Shown: positions 17,351 to 37,123 of the stretch, in pieces
How the letters are laid out: the number at the start of each line of letters is the position of its first letter
Numbering within the stretch: the first letter of the stretch is position 1
IMG/VR virus record: IMGVR_UViG_3300027413_000002
DNA length: 64,000 bases
Source: a virus
Reading direction: 5' to 3' (one strand)
The notes under the pieces: generated by a model
Database searches by the model: none
What the model saw: the letters and a program-made list of their open reading frames with translations, nothing else
What the model was told of the DNA's origin: nothing
Position numbers and translations under genes: made by a program

Positions 17351-17854
17351 CTATGAAAATGTTATAGTATGAATATTGAGATGGTCTTGTAAAACGAAGT
17401 CGATCACATCACACATGACAGATAAATCTTTACCAGAGTAACCCGTCATCCTCGTGTTCAGAGTTGCTGGCTTTATATTGGTGATCGGTTTACCGAGGCA
17501 GAAATCGTCTAATGCTTTTTTATCTGCTTCATATTGTATAGTGATAGCATCTTTATCGTATTTAAAATCGGTGACTGCAGAAGATATATTAATAATTTTC
17601 TTATCGTTCGAATGAGTCATCTTCAGCAACTCTAGCTGAGAACCATTACCCATGTTGTGATAATCATAGGCATTATTAATGAACACGTCATATTCAACTG
17701 CCATGATTCGTTCTCTATCTTCTTGTTTAGAAATATCATAACCATTCGACAAAGAGAATCCAGTAACATCGGCACTCCACTTATCTCTGAGATGATCAGC
17801 TAATACCTTACCAACACCGTTTGTGTGCCCTGTGATCGAAACTTTCATGACCAT
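17351..17854 (-). CDS. Short-chain dehydrogenase/reductase (compact)
   Basis: TGHTNGVG (TGxxxGxG), FINNA, NISS, YEADK (YxxxK). Confidence 0.8.
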   Translation of the reverse strand: MVMKVSITGHTNGVGKVLADHLRDKWSADVTGFSLSNGYDISKQEDRERIMAVEYDVFINNAYDYHNMGNGSQLELLKMTHSNDKKIINISSAVTDFKYDKDAITIQYEADKKALDDFCLGKPITNIKPATLNTRMTGYSGKDLSVMCDVIDFVLQDHLNIHTITFS

Positions 17855-27950: not shown

Positions 27951-28613
27951 ATGTCAGCAACTCACCAATACTTTTTTCCCTGTAAGGATCTGCTTTCTCC
28001 TGAGGAGAGAATCATTCTCAAAAAACTTTGTGATGAAATATCGAGAGTCGGTGACCAATTACATGGTGGTGGTTATGAAGAAATTGCAGATCCACATTTC
28101 ATTGCTGAGATATCCAAAGTTCACGAAAACACCACCAGTAAAAATTGGTCTGGTATATCAGAACCCAGCATGATACAATCTATCCCAGAGTTTAAGCAGA
28201 AGTATCTTGACACAATCAACAACATTGTTGAGAGATACAACGGGGATGGTTGGAGATTCCTTGGGTCAAGAAATGACGAAGAATGTATTGCAATACACAG
28301 GGATCCAAAAATGGGATACATAACAAATATATCTATTCCACTCATTCCCGACTATGCATTTTTCAGACCAACAAATTTCTACACCGATCTCAATAAAGAG
28401 AGCCTGATACACCAAGCCAATTATGAGGTATTTAGATCTCCTGCGATTTTAAATATGAGAAAACCACATAATGCAGGTAATTTTTTCAGAGAACATTTGC
28501 TTGGTGTTTACAATGGTTCTAGTATAACATTTCAGGTTATGTTTCTGGACTCATATGATAACGTGAAATCAAAATTCAAACAGAAAGGTTGGTTATCGAC
28601 CACCCCTTTCTAA
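27951..28613 (+). CDS. Putative 2OG-Fe(II) oxygenase-like protein; only credible plus-strand gene
   Basis: IHRD (HxD), NISIPL, ILNMRKPHNA distal His; fills the gp62-regA gap. Confidence 0.6.
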   Translation: MSATHQYFFPCKDLLSPEERIILKKLCDEISRVGDQLHGGGYEEIADPHFIAEISKVHENTTSKNWSGISEPSMIQSIPEFKQKYLDTINNIVERYNGDGWRFLGSRNDEECIAIHRDPKMGYITNISIPLIPDYAFFRPTNFYTDLNKESLIHQANYEVFRSPAILNMRKPHNAGNFFREHLLGVYNGSSITFQVMFLDSYDNVKSKFKQKGWLSTTPF

Positions 28614-29039
28614 TTTTTTCCTTATAACTTCCAACTGCTGATCAGTCAAGATTCTCAACGCACCCTGAGCATGGGTGTCATTGTACCCATAATACTCTTT
28701 GACGATAGCCAAGTCTTCTTCCTTGATAGGTTTCAACCATTTGTTAAATCGTTTCTTGGGTCGAACAACGCCACGGAGGAAGTCAAACTGTGCCTTCTTA
28801 TCGACATGAGGTCGGCTGTTCATTTCATTACAAGCAATCACCGTGTCAGCACCATAGCTGAGTGCCTTGTTGATGATGAACGCATTGTATTGTTTCTCAG
28901 ACCAGTCGTCAACAATCATATCCGCTTTGGTGTGGTGGATGGCATTGACGAAATCAAATGGGCTGATTGTCTTTTTCTTTACTTTAAATTGTTCTTCGTC
29001 CAGCTGTACAACTGGATCTCCCATACCCTCAAGTGTCAT
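28593..29039 (-). CDS. gp62: Clamp loader small subunit (T4 gp62)
   Basis: SPFDFVNAI, FIINKALS, EMN, KEYYGY. Confidence 0.9.
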   Translation of the reverse strand: MTLEGMGDPVVQLDEEQFKVKKKTISPFDFVNAIHHTKADMIVDDWSEKQYNAFIINKALSYGADTVIACNEMNSRPHVDKKAQFDFLRGVVRPKKRFNKWLKPIKEEDLAIVKEYYGYNDTHAQGALRILTDQQLEVIRKKLERGGR

Positions 29040-29818
29040 AATATATTCCTGTAATCGAATGCAATCCTGTGCAGTAATCTGTTTTCCATTCCAGCAAACT
29101 TATGTCTCTTATGCAGCGATAACCACTGCTCGCTGATTACAATGTCGCCATCTTTCCAGTGATGGTGGTATTGATAGAATGGGTCTAAACAAAATTCTTT
29201 TAACTCGTCAAAAAATGGATCATATTCCTCATTGAATATTTGCAAGAACGGGAAATATAATCCCTCAACGCCTGCATCATTCTTATGGTAAATATCGAAT
29301 GGCTCCTCACCAACATGGTCGAAAAAATATTCGCTGTCACTTATTCGCCCTTTTTCATAACCACACCAGATCTTTTTTGTTTTTGCAGTTTCTTTCATAT
29401 GCTCTGGTAGATCTTCCCAGACCTTCGCCATATTCAACCAGCTTGTAACAGAACCCTCAGAACCTTTAACAGCATACAACCAAATGAGTGGCCATCTTTT
29501 TTTATTTGAGGTTTGATTGGCATGCCAGTCTAACTCGGATACATGTCCAAACAGACCTTCCTTACCATCTTCGTCTTTTGCCCCAGTAACCCGAAGAACA
29601 TTTTCGTTAACAGCAATTGGTTTTGTAAAATGTTTGATGTGTTCTTGTTCGTGATAATTCTCAACCTCACCAATCATCTTACAGAATCTGACTTGATCTT
29701 CTGGTGTCAGGTTTTTTTGGTCTTTAATTACGACAACTATATTTTCAAGTAATGCTTCACCGACTATTTCAGCCGTTGCTTCAGTAGCATTTTTTATATC
29801 AACTTCTAAGTTCAACAT
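29036..29818 (-). CDS. TauD/TfdA-family dioxygenase
   Basis: VVVIKDQ..LTPEDQVRF, LDWHAN, HHWKDGDIVI, LHKR, RLLHRI. Confidence 0.82.
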   Translation of the reverse strand: MLNLEVDIKNATEATAEIVGEALLENIVVVIKDQKNLTPEDQVRFCKMIGEVENYHEQEHIKHFTKPIAVNENVLRVTGAKDEDGKEGLFGHVSELDWHANQTSNKKRWPLIWLYAVKGSEGSVTSWLNMAKVWEDLPEHMKETAKTKKIWCGYEKGRISDSEYFFDHVGEEPFDIYHKNDAGVEGLYFPFLQIFNEEYDPFFDELKEFCLDPFYQYHHHWKDGDIVISEQWLSLHKRHKFAGMENRLLHRIAFDYRNIL

Positions 29819-30740
29819 TCGCCATAATCTCCGTGAGGCAAGCAGTCAAATTAATTTCCTGGTCGGCAACAAAAGCTGCCTTGTATTGATAGTCTGCAAT
29901 GAGAAGAACAAGTTGTGGAACTTGCGCTGCTTTGTCCAAGAGCGTATCGTAGATCTTACGATAAACACCTTGCGGGTCTGCGTCAACATTGTTGGCGACC
30001 CATTGGCGCATTTTCTTCCAGTCCTTGTCACGCAGACTATCAACCAGTGCTTTGGTATTTACTTCAGCGAGGTTAGAAAGGATTCCCTCGTCAATTTTAC
30101 CAGACACACTATAGCGTTGCAATTCATTGAGGACACGTCGATAATCAGGAAAATGTTTCATCAAAAGTTCAGCAAGGACTTTTTCAGAATACTCAACATT
30201 TTCTTGGTCGAGGATACGAGCCATTCGCTTCATAAAGCGAGCCGCCATCTGTTGGCGATTGGTCTTATCGAGTTTAAAATCCACGACCGTGGTTCGACTG
30301 TGTAACGGATCGATAATCCTGTTCTTAAAGTTACAGGTAAATATGAACCGACAGTTTGATGAGAACTCCTCAATGAATGCACGCAAGGCAGGTTGTGTTG
30401 AATTAGGATTCAGATAATCTGCTTCGTCAAGAATAACCACTTTTGGCTTGCCCACAAAGGACATAGTACTGGCGAAGTCTTTGATCTTTGTCCGAAGAAC
30501 ATCAATCCCAGACTCCTCAGAGCCATTGATAATAATATAGTCACATCCTAATTCATTACACAACGCACGAGCGACCGTCGTCTTGCCCGTGCCAGCAGTA
30601 CCACATAACAGCAAGTTCGAAATCTCTCCAGCTTCCACGAACTGTTGGAATGTATCCAAGAGAGAGGAGGGAAGAATACATTCCTCCAGTGTTTGTGGGC
30701 GGTATTTTTCAACCCAAAGAAATTCGTCTTGCTTCATCAT
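29799..30740 (-). CDS. gp44: Clamp loader large subunit (T4 gp44)
   Basis: WVEKYRP, GTAGTGKT, ILDEAD, LHSR. Confidence 0.96.
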   Translation of the reverse strand: MMKQDEFLWVEKYRPQTLEECILPSSLLDTFQQFVEAGEISNLLLCGTAGTGKTTVARALCNELGCDYIIINGSEESGIDVLRTKIKDFASTMSFVGKPKVVILDEADYLNPNSTQPALRAFIEEFSSNCRFIFTCNFKNRIIDPLHSRTTVVDFKLDKTNRQQMAARFMKRMARILDQENVEYSEKVLAELLMKHFPDYRRVLNELQRYSVSGKIDEGILSNLAEVNTKALVDSLRDKDWKKMRQWVANNVDADPQGVYRKIYDTLLDKAAQVPQLVLLIADYQYKAAFVADQEINLTACLTEIMANVELRS

Positions 30741-30749
30741 ATAATACTC

Positions 30750-31355
30750 CTATCCAATTTTATCTTCAGAACCTATACCATCTGATAGGTTCAACTGTAA
30801 CGCTTCACCACCTGTATCATACTCCCTTCCTTCCAAAAAGGCAAGGATATTCTGCGGAGAAGATACACCATATGGGTCGTCCAAAGCATTGTTTGTAAAA
30901 CCTCGTTCAACGAACGTCTGTTCGATCTCAAAGTTCTTCACAATCATAGCATAACGCCATGAACGAATACCGAAGCCAAGGTTGTCCTTGTAAACATCCA
31001 TTCCCATGGAAGAAGTAAACTTACCAGATCCATCTGGGATTACTTTGACGTGTTCAAGTCCTTGATCTTCTGCCCACTTATTCATCACAAAGGTATCATT
31101 TACTGATACACAGAAGATGTTTTCAACACCTGCCTTCTGAAACCGAGGATATAACTCCTCGAAATCAGGAAGCTGGAATGTAGAACAAGTGGGAGTGAAG
31201 GCTCCAGGAAGTGCGAAGATAACACACTTCTCTCGACCTACAATCTCATGGGATAATTGCATTTCCCATGCGAAAGGATTATCACCACCAACGGATTCAT
31301 CTCGAACACGGACGTGGTGTACCACATTTGGAATGCGGTGTGGAAATAAAGGCAT
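30750..31355 (-). CDS. Peroxiredoxin (Prx5 type)
   Basis: LPGAFTPTCS, SVNDTFVM, RSWRYAM. Confidence 0.92.
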   Translation of the reverse strand: MPLFPHRIPNVVHHVRVRDESVGGDNPFAWEMQLSHEIVGREKCVIFALPGAFTPTCSTFQLPDFEELYPRFQKAGVENIFCVSVNDTFVMNKWAEDQGLEHVKVIPDGSGKFTSSMGMDVYKDNLGFGIRSWRYAMIVKNFEIEQTFVERGFTNNALDDPYGVSSPQNILAFLEGREYDTGGEALQLNLSDGIGSEDKIG

Positions 31356-31364
31356 GGTGTCTCC

Positions 31365-32021
31365 TTAAATTACAGAGTTTGGCTCGAGAGCCAGCCAGTA
31401 TTTCATAGTCCCTGATTCATTTTCAAGGAACATAAACTTCTTTTGTGACAAGACGATCTTATAAGAATCGGCAATCACTTTGAAGTTCTCAACAGCGAGA
31501 CGGCAATCAAACTCTTTATCAGTCTCACCAATAACCTGACGGAAGGTGTTACTACGAGGAGTTGATGGGTCACCGACAGACAATGTCACTTCACCGTCAC
31601 GACCAACAACACTCATTACTGGTGCACTGATAACAGAAGCAGCACGAGTGATAGTCGTGATTTGCTCTTTATCCATCGTGAATTCAAAGAAGTTATCGAC
31701 ATCAATAGTCTTGTCAGGGGCAGCAGTAATGATAGATGGGTCTGCGTAGAAATACTCAAACTCAGCACCACCGCTGTTGATTTTTAAACTCCCTTCACCA
31801 AGATCAAGATCTGGAGTATCAGTGAATGTCAGCAAACCCAACAGGCTGTTGAGGTCATAGATAGCGAACTCTTTGTCAAAAGATTCCGTCACTGTGGCGC
31901 GGGAGAAAATGTTCTTGCCAGCACTGATAGTGGCAAGGGTGTTACCTTCACGAACTAGAATGTTCGAGTTAATCGTTGCGAAGTTTTTTAAGACTTCAAG
32001 GGTTGGTTTAGAAATGTTCAT
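31365..32021 (-). CDS. gp45: Sliding clamp (T4 gp45)
   Basis: LKNFATINSNI, FAIYDL, YWLALE; likely start 32021. Confidence 0.93.
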   Translation of the reverse strand: MNISKPTLEVLKNFATINSNILVREGNTLATISAGKNIFSRATVTESFDKEFAIYDLNSLLGLLTFTDTPDLDLGEGSLKINSGGAEFEYFYADPSIITAAPDKTIDVDNFFEFTMDKEQITTITRAASVISAPVMSVVGRDGEVTLSVGDPSTPRSNTFRQVIGETDKEFDCRLAVENFKVIADSYKIVLSQKKFMFLENESGTMKYWLALEPNSVI

Positions 32022-32056
32022 AATATAGTTCCTCTTTCTTTTCAAGTAGTTTCATA

Positions 32057-32085
32057 ATAATACATCATTAGTGCGCAATAGTCAA
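32057..32085 (-). promoter_or_regulatory. Sigma70-like early promoter (gp45)
   Basis: gcTTGACT-17 nt-TATTAT. Confidence 0.7.
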
Positions 32086-32405
32086 GCATCTTCTTCATAT
32101 TTTTTCAACTCAAATGTCAAGTTCGGATGTATCTCGTAAAAATCTACATCTTCTTGATTGACAGTTTGAGAGAAAAGGTTGATAATTTCTTCGAGTTGAT
32201 CTTCATCACTCAATTTAATGGTAGTTGTGAGAGAAAGACCATCGATTGATATATGTTGTGAAAACATCCCAGAGTATTCGTCAACTTTTATTTTTATTTC
32301 TTCATAAATTCTTATAGTATCAACATTGGGTTCAGATGGACCAAACATATCACCAAGAGAATTTCGAGTTATTATATAATCTATGCAGTAATTTCTTGAA
32401 GACAT
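32082..32405 (-). CDS. Small acidic hypothetical protein
   Basis: 107 aa, Asp/Glu-rich, overlaps upstream gene; last of the five-gene cassette. Confidence 0.55.
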   Translation of the reverse strand: MSSRNYCIDYIITRNSLGDMFGPSEPNVDTIRIYEEIKIKVDEYSGMFSQHISIDGLSLTTTIKLSDEDQLEEIINLFSQTVNQEDVDFYEIHPNLTFELKKYEEDA

Positions 32406-32968
32406 TTTAAAATTTCTTTCTCATAATCGTCATAGTTTAGATACAGTGCAGTCTGTTCAGTGTACTTATAATTCACAGGTGATTCATATTCCACGAATGG
32501 CATATTAGGAAATACCGTGTAGTCATTCTTCTTTGGATCGACAGTTTTTGACAAACTCTTCAATCTCCACCTATTATGCTCGTTCACAAAAAACATCATA
32601 GCGCGGTAATCATCTTTTGCAAATCTTACAACGTGATGAACAAGTTTTTGAATCACAGTTATACTTTTCTTTATGCCTAGATCTGGTATCACGTATAGTC
32701 TGACAGGGCAGACGAATATATTCTTATCGCCTTCATATGGATAGAACCCCATACCGCCAAGATACTTATCGTCTTCTTCGTATGCGAAATATCCACCCTC
32801 ATCATACGCCTTCTGTTTGAAGATCTGGTGCAGCAATGTTTCTGGGCGATCCCACCAATCTAAGAATTCTATGTTTTCAGCGGTTGGGTCTGTATTAAAC
32901 TCAGCGGTCTTACACATATCAAAGAGTTTATTATCAACAATGTGTTGACTATCTATCCTCACGAACAT
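32381..32968 (-). CDS. Putative GNAT-like acyltransferase
   Basis: YFAYEEDDKYLGGMGF beta hairpin then RLYVIP, later MFFVNEHN; fold inferred only. Confidence 0.4.
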   Translation of the reverse strand: MFVRIDSQHIVDNKLFDMCKTAEFNTDPTAENIEFLDWWDRPETLLHQIFKQKAYDEGGYFAYEEDDKYLGGMGFYPYEGDKNIFVCPVRLYVIPDLGIKKSITVIQKLVHHVVRFAKDDYRAMMFFVNEHNRWRLKSLSKTVDPKKNDYTVFPNMPFVEYESPVNYKYTEQTALYLNYDDYEKEILKCLQEITA

Positions 32969-33668
32969 TCAGAAACCTTATAAAAAATTGGTATGGCGCG
33001 TCGATCAAACCGAACCTTGGGATTCCTGGATTCTTATGATGGAACTGATGGTACAACTCACCGCTATATAATATTGAGAGGAGAGCATTGTTGACTGGTT
33101 TTTTATTTGGATGGCCAAGAAGATTCAAGGTGACTTGGAAAATATATGCAACACCAATCGTTGCCGCCCAGAAACCACCCAGACCAGACGCGATCATTAA
33201 ACCCCCAGAGAGGATTGCAATTTCCCAATACCATCTTGCCTGAAATCCATATAGTCTATCTCTTATCATCCATCTCGGTATTGATGTTACAGATGGTACA
33301 CCATTGAATACCATAAAATTATCGAAAACACTATGTACGTTTCCATGTGGATCCTTTTCCGTGTCTGTAAATCTATGATGGTTTCTATGTACGGATGCCC
33401 ATCCCATACTCGGTGTCAATACGAATGCGTTACATAAGAACAGACTGACAATCTCTACAAACCTCGATGGTTGCCAAGACTTATGAGAACAGTATCGATG
33501 TTGAAACCCAGAAATAAGATATCCAACAAGAAGATTACTCGCGACCAACCAAACCAACAACTCAAAGATAGGCAATGTCGGTATCCAAAAGACTGAATAT
33601 AATGTGCACATAACGTAGAACGCTGTGTGCATATATCCTGTCTTGTTACCGATTAGGGTTATTAGCAT
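32949..33668 (-). CDS. Membrane fatty-acid desaturase (delta-9/OLE1-like)
   Basis: Three His boxes HRYCSH, HRNHH (HHRFTDTEKDPH), HQFHH; NLLGH; TM helices. Confidence 0.9.
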   Translation of the reverse strand: MLITLIGNKTGYMHTAFYVMCTLYSVFWIPTLPIFELLVWLVASNLLVGYLISGFQHRYCSHKSWQPSRFVEIVSLFLCNAFVLTPSMGWASVHRNHHRFTDTEKDPHGNVHSVFDNFMVFNGVPSVTSIPRWMIRDRLYGFQARWYWEIAILSGGLMIASGLGGFWAATIGVAYIFQVTLNLLGHPNKKPVNNALLSILYSGELYHQFHHKNPGIPRFGLIDAPYQFFIRFLNVREDR

Positions 33669-34843
33669 TATACTTCCAGAACTAATGAGGACGATTTACC
33701 ACCAAAGGCAAACGAATTCTTCACTGCAATTTTTTTAGTTAGTTTCTGTTTGTATTTATACACATATTCCAAATCACAATCATCGATGTTGAAATTTTTT
33801 GGTATGACGCCATTACACAAACACATCACACTATAGATTGTCTCGTTGATTCCACTCGCTGCAAGAGAGTGACCGATCTTAGACTTAAAACTCAACACAG
33901 GAGTTTCAGGAATGACTGCTTGTATTGCTGCATACTCTAGGTCATCGCCAATTGGTGTTGAAGTGCCATGTGCGTTTACGAATGCAACATCATCAAGATC
34001 AATACCATTTGTAACAGCAGACATCGATGCTTTCGCGCCAGTCATACTTAAATCAGGAGAGGTGGGGCTACCGAGCGCACCATCTGTGTGGTGTGAGATG
34101 TTGTTTATGTAAGCGATTATTCCAGCACCACGTGCCTTTGCGTCAGACTCTTTTTCTAGGACGAGACAACCAGCACCCTCACCCATAATGAATCCATCTC
34201 GGTTACTATCAAAGGGACTCGATTTTGTACCGAGAGCACCCAATTGATTGAAGAGATACATATCATCGTCTACAGCAGGAGTATCTGTGCCGCCAACAAT
34301 TACATACTTGTGAGTCTTTAGAAGGTGTGTTGCATAGTCGATCGAATATAACCCTGTTGCGCATGCTGCATCCATACTAACACAAGCACCGCGATAGTCA
34401 AAGGTTTGACTGATCAGTCCAGCTGTAAAATCATTTAGATATTGGACAGCAGTTCTTGGTGACAGACGTTTACCATCACGCATCTTGTCAATGAATGGTC
34501 CAGCCTCAGTTTGTGGTTTGGCTGCAACCGAACTGAATACAACAGCTACATCGGTGCTGTCCATACCTGCAGTCGCCTGTTGCACAACGTGGAGTGCATT
34601 CTTAGAAGCCACAGTAAGAGAATTGTGCATCGGTTTGCGGATGCCTTCTGGAATATTGTATTCGGGAACAGAAGTCTTAAAACACTTCAACCCTTTGAGA
34701 GATTCAATCTCTGTCTCAAACTCTACAGGATCGATATATTCTTCACTCAACATATTTTCGAAACATTCCATCGGACTTGTTCCGAGGTTGTCAACGATTC
34801 CCACACCTGTTATTACAATTCTATCATTCATTTCCATACTCAA
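33668..34843 (-). CDS. fabF: Beta-ketoacyl-ACP synthase (FabF/FabB family)
   Basis: IVITGVG, AACATG (Cys), NAHGTST and KSKIGHSL (His pair), RDGFIMGEGAG, NSFAFGG. Confidence 0.9.
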   Translation of the reverse strand: MSMEMNDRIVITGVGIVDNLGTSPMECFENMLSEEYIDPVEFETEIESLKGLKCFKTSVPEYNIPEGIRKPMHNSLTVASKNALHVVQQATAGMDSTDVAVVFSSVAAKPQTEAGPFIDKMRDGKRLSPRTAVQYLNDFTAGLISQTFDYRGACVSMDAACATGLYSIDYATHLLKTHKYVIVGGTDTPAVDDDMYLFNQLGALGTKSSPFDSNRDGFIMGEGAGCLVLEKESDAKARGAGIIAYINNISHHTDGALGSPTSPDLSMTGAKASMSAVTNGIDLDDVAFVNAHGTSTPIGDDLEYAAIQAVIPETPVLSFKSKIGHSLAASGINETIYSVMCLCNGVIPKNFNIDDCDLEYVYKYKQKLTKKIAVKNSFAFGGKSSSLVLEV

Positions 34844-35594
34844 TCATCATTGTCTTGATGTTATCTAACATTTTATTGTTTTTGATCGACTCCATAACCT
34901 GACCATCATCAGAGAAGTCATACATATACAGGAAATCCTCATCAGTCGAGGAGATCTCATGCACCTTCAGTAACTTTTTAACTTGAAGGAAATGTAAAAG
35001 ATCCTCGGCAATGTCGAGGCTCTCATTGAATTTATAATTTGCCGCAGCACGGCTGTATAGAAGATACCGATTAAATGGCTCTCCATTGAAAGTCTGAGAA
35101 CGAATAAACTCTTTGTATTTGAAGTAATAGTCTAGATCTTCCTTTTCCCAAGTCAGACCGTGGCGCATAATCTTGGGCAGTGTTTCAATATCGCTCAATG
35201 TGATCTTCTTACCGCTAGAGGATATTGCATATCCGTTAGTCAGGCATGCAACATCAAACTCGTTGTTTTCGATCTCCTCATGTAATCGAGCAATACAAGT
35301 TTCAGAAATGTAATCATCTCCATCGATCTGAAGGAGATAATCAGCGTCAGTAGCGAGGAAGTATCTCAGGACAGAGTTCTTTCCCATTCCTGGAGTCCCG
35401 TTCGACTTTGTTTTTGTCACAGGGAATCTATGATCAAAAGAAATTTGGGTCGCCAGAGAAGAGTAGTCGGCATCAGTTGTATTAATAACGACGATCCGCT
35501 CATGAGGAGAGAGGTTTGAGTTCACGGATTCCAAACACCGCTTCAACTTCTCTGGCTTCCCATTGGTCAGGATAGCGACCAAAACTTTAGCCAT
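34824..35594 (-). CDS. Glycosyltransferase family 2 (GT-A)
   Basis: LVAILT...LKRCLESV, GKNSVL, IDGDD (DxD), AED; likely start MAKVLV. Confidence 0.78.
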   Translation of the reverse strand: MAKVLVAILTNGKPEKLKRCLESVNSNLSPHERIVVINTTDADYSSLATQISFDHRFPVTKTKSNGTPGMGKNSVLRYFLATDADYLLQIDGDDYISETCIARLHEEIENNEFDVACLTNGYAISSSGKKITLSDIETLPKIMRHGLTWEKEDLDYYFKYKEFIRSQTFNGEPFNRYLLYSRAAANYKFNESLDIAEDLLHFLQVKKLLKVHEISSTDEDFLYMYDFSDDGQVMESIKNNKMLDNIKTMMIEYGNE

Positions 35595-35904
35595 CTGAAT
35601 GTTCCTTGTCGTGAACATACAGAGCAATTAAACCATAATGCAAGACTTTCAGTAAGTCTTTGCGATTGTATCCATCTTTGTTTCCATAGCGTTGAGCATA
35701 CTTCATAATGTTGCCGATGGTGAAACCCTCACCATGACCGCCATCAATAATAAACTCAGTGGCTTGAAATTTGTTTTGCGAATAATGCTCGCCATACGTG
35801 GCATCAACATACTTCTGAAGGTCAGCCATCAACTGACCCTCATTGTATTTGTAATCAATCAATCCATATTCCTCAGCAGTTATTTCCATAGACTCGGACA
35901 TCAC
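35587..35904 (-). CDS. Conserved T4-like protein (DUF3310-like)
   Basis: HYSQ, GNIMKYAQRYGNKDG...DLLKVLHY. Confidence 0.7.
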   Translation of the reverse strand: MMSESMEITAEEYGLIDYKYNEGQLMADLQKYVDATYGEHYSQNKFQATEFIIDGGHGEGFTIGNIMKYAQRYGNKDGYNRKDLLKVLHYGLIALYVHDKEHSDG

Positions 35905-37094: not shown

Positions 37095-37123
37095 ATTATC
37101 GCTCATTCGAGCACAAAAGTCAA
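37095..37123 (-). promoter_or_regulatory. Sigma70-like early promoter (cobS)
   Basis: gcTTGACT-17 nt-GATAAT. Confidence 0.75.

Follow-up and report, generated by a model that had tools for sequence, protein, structure and literature searches.

A ketosynthase-desaturase gene pair nested in a variable gene trio within a T4-type phage replication module

Five overlapping genes and the proteins they encode

We analysed five overlapping genes in a 64,000-nucleotide stretch of viral DNA (IMG/VR virus record IMGVR_UViG_3300027413_000002; the whole stretch is called the window here), in which a gene pair for a ketosynthase (KS) and a fatty-acid desaturase is nested in a trio of genes for a family-2 glycosyltransferase (GT2), a predicted GNAT-fold protein and a small acidic protein of predicted barrel-type fold. 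The five open reading frames (ORFs) lie on the minus strand at 32082-35627, in the order GT2, KS, desaturase, GNAT-fold protein and small acidic protein, flanked by the genes for DUF3310 and gp45, and every junction among them abuts or overlaps. The GT2 stop falls within the opening codons of the KS gene, whose probable ATG start (34837 or 34831) overlaps it, the KS stop and desaturase start overlap as TAATG, and the gene for the 195-residue GNAT-fold protein shares 20 nt with the desaturase gene and 25 nt with the gene for the 107-residue acidic protein. An initial annotation, made from the letters alone, had reported five genes between DUF3310 and gp45, and all of its ORFs were recovered with these abutting or overlapping ends. 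The arrangement is best explained as a translationally coupled operon in a variable DUF3310-gp45 slot of the replication module.

Families were assigned with Pfam, PHROGs and NCBIfam profiles, and folds by comparing AlphaFold2 (AF2) models using Foldseek and VIA. Both KS domains score above the Pfam gathering score (91.5 and 77 bits, cut-off 20.8), and the best matches of the protein are FabF enzymes, including B. subtilis FabF (PDB 4ls5, E 9e-37). The KS motifs AACATG, AHGTST and IGHSL line up with the catalytic Cys, His and Lys/His of that enzyme, in agreement with the triad read from the sequence by the initial annotation. Residues C161, H292, K320, H325 and F380 (FGG gate) are correctly placed relative to 4ls5, and neither they nor D300 and E303 vary among 37 distinct viral homologs, whose identity is only 37-80%. 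In an exhaustive representative search with the KS, multi-KS megasynthases dominated the best 150 matches listed, and five matches were stand-alone enzymes. In a maximum-likelihood tree (quick search, 76 sequences) all 52 viral or metagenomic KS sequences form one clade with an SH-aLRT support of 100, apart from the 24 cellular FabF sequences. Cellular relatives were sought by a pattern-based scan of one genome per species across 185,579 prokaryote species, and those listed are scattered over unrelated phyla. A KS of this type was found in no deposited phage genome searched; the records that appeared to carry one were rejected, all matches being bacterial-type fabF/fabB genes of about 30% identity in mislabelled or contaminated entries. 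On the basis of sequence, the KS is best explained as a condensing enzyme of the decarboxylating KAS II type that falls within a virus-only clade.

The desaturase is, by its motifs, a minimal version of the SCD/DesC family. It passes the PF00487 threshold (34 bits, cut-off 29.7) and contains the three His boxes that the initial annotation had noticed (HRYCSH, HRNHH and HQFHH), as well as NLLGH and a DPH motif. H57, H62, H94, H97, H98, H186, H207, H210, H211 and N182 are conserved in 19-20 viral homologs, across which eight His, N182 and the DPH motif are invariant, so that the 37 viral KS and roughly 20 viral desaturases keep invariant catalytic residues at identities that range from 29 to 80%. 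Hydrophobic segments at residues ~25-55, 70-88 and 150-168 fit the positions expected of a four-helix membrane desaturase, and no other cassette protein has a hydrophobic segment of membrane-spanning strength. Among solved structures its relatives are limited to the acyl-CoA delta-9 desaturases 4zyo and 4ymk (SCD1 aligned); together with the motif spacing, these suggest that the regiospecificity is probably delta-9. A tblastn search (E <= 1e-3) found no desaturase match in any deposited cyanophage, and the sole isolate match was Pelagibacter phage Mosig (28% identity), where the gene lies in an unrelated context or island.

The first gene of the operon encodes a GT-A glycosyltransferase that scores above the PF00535 cut-off (36.5 versus 23.3 bits). 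The DxD motif ascribed to it by the initial annotation is present in QIDGDDY, which is invariant in seven relatives, including D102, D104 and D105. Its N-terminal half alone matches solved GT-A enzymes (6p61, E 2e-7); the protein has no hydrophobic segment, resembles generic GT-A enzymes only, and has two weak matches in deposited phage genomes.

Neither of the two small genes was assigned a family by Pfam, PHROGs or NCBIfam, and their placement relies on models. For the 195-residue protein, an AF2 model built with 13 metagenomic homologs confidently predicts a GNAT fold, as the initial annotation had guessed: the top Foldseek matches are all GNATs (E 2e-7), as are 50 of the 50 top rows in VIA, led by 3gya (Z 12.8, 140 residues, root-mean-square deviation 3.4 Å). 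The sequence itself falls below the membership threshold of PF00583 (16.4 versus 20.7 bits); three of six family members give sub-threshold matches to this profile (E 0.001-0.011), no other Pfam family appears even at E <= 10, and the family profile has no match among PDB sequences. Invariant motifs of the family (RPETL, GxGxYPxExD and YKxTxQ) have no counterpart that we could name, and no relative was found in any deposited phage genome searched. The acyl-CoA loop reads PDLGIKK in place of Q/RxxGxG/A, and its Gly is not conserved; because this motif is degenerate, the fold membership stands while the cofactor or donor is uncertain.

The 107-residue protein (net charge about -14) is modelled as a b-a-b-b-a-b, ferredoxin-like alpha+beta sandwich of the dimeric alpha+beta-barrel (ABM/DABB) type, with a best VIA match to the marine dimeric ferredoxin-like protein 2od6 (Z 8.8) in a list dominated by ABM-type proteins. 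Y6, R14, L17, F21, G56 and L57 are invariant in nine aligned sequences from the phage group described below as group A. The initial annotation had raised the idea of a carrier protein here, and this did not survive: the predicted fold, which is not a four-helix bundle, rules out a role as an acyl carrier protein (ACP), the conserved DGL(S/T) sits between two model strands and not at a helix start, and Pfam gives no PP-binding match. Its statement that no ACP motif is evident was correct, since we found none in the cassette or among ten other small ORFs of the window. A 116-residue gene downstream of the desaturase in a second phage group (group B, below) was considered as a relative of the barrel protein and rejected (hhalign probability 0.3%).

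Distribution, block exchange and an embedded late-promoter motif

An IMG/VR scan seeded with the KS returned 62 loci, and a second scan seeded with the family of the 195-residue protein brought one set of contigs, group A, to its final total of 11. Both scans were pattern-seeded and may miss divergent relatives; counts are given per contig, as several locus identifiers (L numbers) point to one contig. All 11 distinct group A contigs have the order KS, desaturase, GNAT-fold protein and small protein, with GT2 upstream wherever the region is covered, in a backbone of cobT-cobS-DUF3310 and gp45-peroxiredoxin. The dedicated scan gave the same picture from the other side, as KS and desaturase lie directly upstream in 11 of 11 contigs with a relative of the 195-residue protein. 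Positional homologs of the 107-residue protein were present wherever they were sought in group A, in both of its cassette types, and also at the KS-less loci L204 and L207. Adjacency of KS and desaturase is seen in two further settings. In group B (8 contigs with a UvsX-gp41 helicase-thymidylate synthase-DUF3310 backbone) and at locus L013 the pair occurs without GT2 or GNAT, and a looser linkage is found in L022, L058 and L060. DUF3310 followed by KS alone was seen at six loci. About 35 loci (group D) carry the KS in another context with no desaturase within 6 kb.

The trio likewise occurs without the pair. In L204 and L207, whose gp45 is 82-83% identical to that of the window, the order is cobS-DUF3310-GT2-GNAT-small protein-gp45, and the gap between GT2 and GNAT is empty. 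In L088-L090 a GT2-Coq4-like-GNAT arrangement lacks the small protein, KS and desaturase; hhalign relates the L088 protein to the 195-residue protein as a GNAT homolog (probability 98.9%), and a different lipid-related gene thus occupies the place of the pair. L008 and L009 have a GT2 cut to 153 residues (its N-terminal half) in front of intact KS, desaturase, GNAT and small-protein genes, and L001 has an unrelated, kinase/cytidylyltransferase-like gene inserted between GT2 and KS. Some 60 more distant relatives (gp45 52-67% identical) have none of the five genes and other content in the slot. Where both genes lie in the locus, the DUF3310-gp45 interval measures 0.4 to 4 kb, and given these varied contents we regard the slot as a recombination hot spot.

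Comparison of close relatives revealed sharp boundaries. L070 is 98.7% identical to the window at the DNA level from 32117 on (gp45 99%, peroxiredoxin 99.5%), and the identity between L023 and the window switches at 34838 and again at 32115, from where it is 90%; a recombination breakpoint thus lies at the gp45 edge, at about 32115-32117. L074 is 100% identical to the window from cobS to ~35281 and about 70% identical beyond, and this switch falls just past the GT2 DxD motif. The N-terminal, nucleotide-binding half of GT2 therefore moves with the backbone and its C-terminal half with the variable cassette. Within the phage lineage the trio proteins of the two cassette versions are only 23-40% identical. 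In the KS tree the window-type KS groups with that of group B (support 99) and the KS of the second cassette type with a KS-only group, group C (support 86), and hence the alleles were drawn from different viral subclades. Since the breakpoints fall where flanking homology begins, block exchange alone is no proof of functional coupling.

A T4-type late-promoter motif, TATAAATA, is embedded in the 3' end of the KS gene, upstream of the desaturase. The window holds 21 copies of this motif where 2.35 are expected, 20 of them on the minus strand, which is consistent with T4-type late promoters throughout. In the KS clades A1, B and L013, those in which a desaturase follows the KS, 12 of 13 loci have a copy at this position, 91-100 nt ahead of the KS stop codon, as does L061; the 3' ends of KS genes from KS-only groups do not contain it. 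L013 and L061 retain the motif in a different codon and amino-acid context, which suggests that selection acts on the DNA motif itself. Late transcription, in addition to early, would thus probably reach the desaturase gene and those downstream.

Several related loci contain additional genes. At L013 (1485-7848) a 2-oxoglutarate-Fe(II) oxygenase gene precedes the pair, and genes for a PhyH-like dioxygenase, an FkbM methyltransferase, a sulfotransferase-like protein and a GT1 glycosyltransferase follow; this island of tailoring enzymes could point to a lipo-glycoconjugate product. The Coq4-like gene of L088 (4899-7018; also L089 and L090; PF05019, E 2e-14) lies on a 105-kb contig. The truncated GT2 of L008 (5536-5997) is on the same contigs as L009, L086 and L087, and the 266-residue gene inserted in L001 (5201-6001), the closest relative, has an APS-kinase-like P-loop and a weak cytidylyltransferase-like match. 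L204 (5024-5311) and L207 (5018-5305) share a conserved 95-residue ORF between DUF3310 and GT2 with no counterpart in the window. In L058 (1137-2691) and L060, which belong to another phage group, two tandem desaturase paralogs of 259 and 262 residues precede the KS by about 4 kb, and gp32 comes after the KS. Group D loci (L045, 5594-8387, and ~30 similar loci) are highly conserved, with a DUF7695 protein preceding the KS and a short GDSL-like lipase/acylhydrolase two genes downstream of it (PF13472, E 1.6e-6, below the cut-off).

Pfam and PHROGs identify the neighbourhood of the cassette as a T4-type replication module (Table 1). Upstream lie gp46/gp47-like genes, a peptide deformylase gene, a cobT-like gene, cobS and DUF3310, and downstream gp45, peroxiredoxin, gp44, a TauD-family dioxygenase gene and gp62, with gp43 farther on. 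The DUF3310 gene adjoins KS or GT2 in three different phage backbones. The peroxiredoxin gene directly follows gp45 and keeps this position in all related backbones, and the dioxygenase gene is placed between gp44 and gp62. A sigma-70-like promoter upstream of cobS is likely to be the early promoter of cobS, DUF3310 and the cassette; there is no convincing terminator on the minus strand between it and the gp45 promoter, and for these reasons we think that the five genes are probably co-transcribed with cobS and DUF3310. The greater AT-richness claimed by the initial annotation applies clearly to the two small genes (GC 0.31 and 0.38), whereas the cassette as a whole (0.401) is near the window (0.421; cobS 0.483, cobT 0.456), and a foreign origin based on GC content was therefore rejected.

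The virus is an uncultured, T4-like and probably marine phage that is likely to be of the pelagimyophage type. The window contains cobS, cobT, gp45, gp44, gp62, gp43, gp46/47 and peptide deformylase genes, its gp45 is at most 43% identical to that of any deposited phage, and megablast gave almost no matches. We link the phage to pelagimyophages and SAR11 because cobS, cobT and peptide deformylase fit the published group (PMC7029224) and because the isolate match of the desaturase is a Pelagibacter phage, which would make SAR11 a candidate host.

Table 1. Features of the cassette and its surroundings in the window.
Feature	Position	Strand	Remarks
GT2 (GT-A) glycosyltransferase, 267 residues	34824..35627	minus	PF00535 E 6e-9; probable ATG start 35594
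KAS-I/II-type beta-ketoacyl synthase	33668..34843	minus	PF00109 E 9e-26 and PF02801 E 1.5e-21
TATAAATA, T4-type late-promoter motif	33753..33760	minus	In KS 3' end, 85 nt upstream of desaturase ATG
SCD/DesC-type membrane di-iron fatty-acid desaturase, 239 residues	32949..33668	minus	PF00487 E 3e-8
GNAT-fold protein, 195 residues	32381..32968	minus	AF2 pLDDT 91; GNAT by Foldseek and VIA
Small acidic protein, 107 residues	32082..32405	minus	AF2 pLDDT 83; ABM/DABB-type fold
Sigma-70-like promoter upstream of cobS	37095..37123	minus	TTGACT-17-GATAAT, 10/12 matches
DUF3310 gene	35587..35904	minus	PF11753; left-hand anchor adjoining GT2 or KS in groups A, B and C
Sigma-70-like promoter of gp45	32057..32085	minus	TTGACT-17-TATTAT; right edge of cassette
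gp45	31365..32045		
Peroxiredoxin	30750..31355	minus	Redoxin, E 1e-22
gp44	29799..30740		
TauD/TfdA-family dioxygenase	29036..29818	minus	PF02668, E 7e-27
gp62	28593..29039		

What the two gene sets may do

We lean towards a reading in which the cassette consists of two modules, one formed by KS and desaturase and the other by GT2, the GNAT-fold protein and the barrel protein. In the first module, the KS would condense host acyl-ACP with host malonyl-ACP, host FabG, FabZ and FabI would complete each round of elongation, and the desaturase would then add a cis double bond, probably at delta-9, shifting the acyl chains of the infected cell to longer, unsaturated species; the desaturase and the genes downstream would also be transcribed late from TATAAATA within the KS gene. 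This role agrees with the delta-9 activity demonstrated for cyanophage desaturases (PMC5776448) and with the listing of fabF and a stearoyl-CoA desaturase in freshwater pelagimyophages (PMC7029224). The second module, a hypervariable trio for glycosyl transfer and acyl or acetyl transfer that stands alone in sister phages, most likely has as its target a glycoconjugate or some other acceptor in the infected cell.

Several observations weigh against this two-module reading. The KS reaches 217.6 bits against the TIGR03150 fabF equivalog, for which the cut-off is 493.75 bits, it is 27-36% identical to the best cellular FabF among the matches listed, and the stem of the viral KS clade measures 1.63 substitutions per site; because of this low identity (~30%), sub-cut-off score and long stem, a housekeeping FabF activity should not be assumed. 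The cassette contains no ACP gene and no gene for the reductive steps of fatty-acid synthesis. In both cassette types the KS-desaturase pair lies exactly between GT2 and GNAT, and this nested position, together with the tailoring-enzyme and GT1 neighbours of the pair in L013, hints at coupling to a glycoconjugate. Moreover, left of 32117 the near-identical L070 backbone has no nucleotide similarity to the window, and its KS, desaturase and GNAT proteins are 45%, 30% and 49% identical; hypervariability of this kind would be unusual in a simple metabolic booster and is seen more typically at host-interaction loci.

If the five genes instead form one integrated pathway, a special unsaturated acyl chain would be made on host ACP and transferred by the GNAT-fold protein to an amine, GT2 would supply or glycosylate the acceptor and the barrel protein would tailor or chaperone the product, yielding a lipo-glycoconjugate or N-acyl lipid in the manner of NodE/NodA/NodC. 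The initial annotation had proposed such an elongate-desaturate-transfer route, and the four family or fold assignments behind it stood up, as did its suggestion to look for conserved synteny: the KS-desaturase-GNAT order is kept in 11 viral contigs. These contigs preserve GT2, KS, desaturase, GNAT and small protein as an overlapping operon in two deeply diverged versions, with the pair at the same place in both and with KS from different subclades. The acceptor half of GT2 co-varies with the downstream genes, the swap in L074 starting past the GT2 DxD motif, the Coq4-like gene of L088 that sits between GT2 and GNAT is lipid-related, and the pair in L013 stands in front of PhyH, FkbM methyltransferase, sulfotransferase-like and GT1 genes. 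Acyl-ACP is a known substrate of some GNAT-fold enzymes (LuxI, FeeM and OlsB types). Yet the nearest structures of our GNAT model are small-molecule or protein acetyltransferases, with acyl-homoserine lactone synthases lower (Z 9.9 versus 12.8), and its loop is degenerate. The cassette encodes no carrier protein, and the short-chain dehydrogenase/reductase that the initial annotation had read at 17351-17854 (minus strand) matches no Pfam family at E <= 0.001. Unlinked occurrence, which it had named as a counter-indication, was found in part, as the genes are linked in 11 contigs but both halves also stand alone in evolution (L204 and L207 without KS or desaturase, group B without GT2 or GNAT). 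L008 and L009 keep KS, desaturase and GNAT with a truncated GT2, L001 has an unrelated gene between GT2 and KS, and flank homology alone can explain the block exchange. Because the two gene sets are separable and neither the carrier nor the reductase was borne out, we treat a single pathway as possible but unlikely. The related idea that the two modules cooperate, to make a phage-encoded lipo-glycoconjugate with an unsaturated acyl chain on a sugar or amine whose allelic turnover reflects an arms race at the cell surface, seems to us slightly more doubtful again.

The locus could also be a hypervariable host-interaction island, serving superinfection exclusion, a change of envelope or receptor (lipopolysaccharide (LPS), lipid A) or counter-defence and not bulk lipid supply. 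We retain this explanation because the observed turnover, with alleles 30-50% identical in 99% identical backbones and sharp breakpoints at ~35281 and 32117, is unusual for a metabolic helper; the ~60 distant backbones with other content in the DUF3310-gp45 slot agree with it, and a role in altering the host O-chain to counter co-infection has been put forward for pelagimyophage glycosyltransferases (PMC7029224). We nevertheless consider it improbable, as PADLOC gave no match to defence or anti-defence families, the desaturase alone has hydrophobic segments of membrane-spanning strength, no direct link to LPS enzymes was seen, and the KS clade is widespread in non-variable contexts such as the highly conserved group D. 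The least credible account, to which we give very little weight, is that unrelated passengers have gathered in a recombination hot spot, some of them decaying or without a role in infection. The range of slot content among relatives (~0.4 to 4 kb), the truncated GT2 of L008 and L009 and the extra gene of L001 would fit such passengers, but they would hardly be expected to keep catalytic residues invariant despite deep divergence, overlapping frames intact in all versions and a conserved embedded TATAAATA.

Among auxiliary metabolic genes, phage desaturases already form an established class, and fabF appears in viral gene catalogues. We know of no phage condensing enzyme that has been characterised. 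The literature contains one earlier mention of a fabF and desaturase pair. In the literature searched we found no virus-only KS clade, no coupling of a KS to a minimal desaturase, no embedded promoter, no GNAT/barrel/GT2 trio and no nested, block-exchanged architecture. Our analysis adds that the KS of phages fall into a single old, virus-only clade in which the chemistry is intact, that the KS is repeatedly coupled to a desaturase, that the pair appears to carry its own embedded late promoter, and that one marine lineage nests the pair in a fast-evolving trio. Through this modular block exchange there are phages that have the trio alone, the pair alone or both sets, and these can serve as natural controls. 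Should the hosts be bacteria of the SAR11 type, infection could change the fatty-acid composition of a large part of the biomass in the surface ocean, and if the modules do cooperate, the rapid allelic turnover would be the mark of an arms race at the surface of cells that rank among the most abundant bacteria in the ocean.

Comparison with known systems

Rhizobial Nod-factor genes encode a KS (NodE), an ACP (NodF), an N-acyltransferase (NodA) and a GT2 (NodC), and AcpXL, FabF-XL and LpxXL belong to a lipid A cluster. The cassette is similar to the Nod system in its working logic only, combining a FabF-like KS with a ~195-residue acyltransferase and a family-2 glycosyltransferase. In contrast to the Nod system it has no ACP, its GT2 is soluble and short (267 residues), a desaturase takes the place of NodF-dependent chemistry, and its modules are separable; Pfam gave no match to the NodA or NodC families in the cassette, and the GT2 is not of the processive membrane NodC/chitin-synthase type. 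Like members of the GNAT superfamily, the whole 195-residue protein superposes on GNAT structures, but it lies below the Pfam cut-off and its pyrophosphate-binding loop motif is not conserved. The 107-residue protein shares its b-a-b-b-a-b topology and size (~100 residues) with ABM/DABB proteins such as ActVA-Orf6, YgiN, LsrG and MupZ, and 101 of 110 residues align on 2od6, a marine metagenome DABB protein. It differs from them in its middling Z scores (7-9), an identity of at most 14% and the lack of mapped catalytic residues.

The KS resembles FabF/KAS II and FabB/KAS I enzymes in its two-domain thiolase fold, Cys-His-His triad, Lys before the second His, FGG Phe and GD..E motif, and FabF is its best NCBIfam and PDB match. 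Unlike FabF, it is about 20 residues shorter, only ~30% identical and divergent in its N-terminal third, and falls in a clade of viral and metagenomic sequences only. Rhodobacteraceae prophages carry fabG-acpP-fabF sets (PMC8224337), whereas the KS described here has no neighbouring acpP or fabG.

The desaturase is closest in kind to the cyanophage desaturases (vFAD), which have been demonstrated to be delta-9 lipid desaturases (Roitman et al. 2017, PMC5776448). Like these it is a phage-borne membrane di-iron protein with three His boxes, and its spacing and DPH motif match the delta-9 enzymes, SCD1 and DesC among them; unlike vFAD it has 239 residues, is coupled to a KS and is preceded by an embedded late-promoter motif. 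For freshwater pelagimyophages, fabF and stearoyl-CoA desaturase have been listed as genes (Zaragoza-Solas et al. 2020, PMC7029224), in one sentence that calls them unique to the freshwater group and gives no linkage, phylogeny or partners. The window has in common with these phages the same two kinds of gene in a T4-like phage with a candidate SAR11-type host, as well as the cobS, cobT and peptide deformylase genes of pelagimyophages. However, the freshwater-group look-alikes (group D) have no desaturase within 6 kb of the KS, whereas the pair described here is adjacent, resides in a probably marine-type phage and is nested in a GT2-GNAT-barrel trio.

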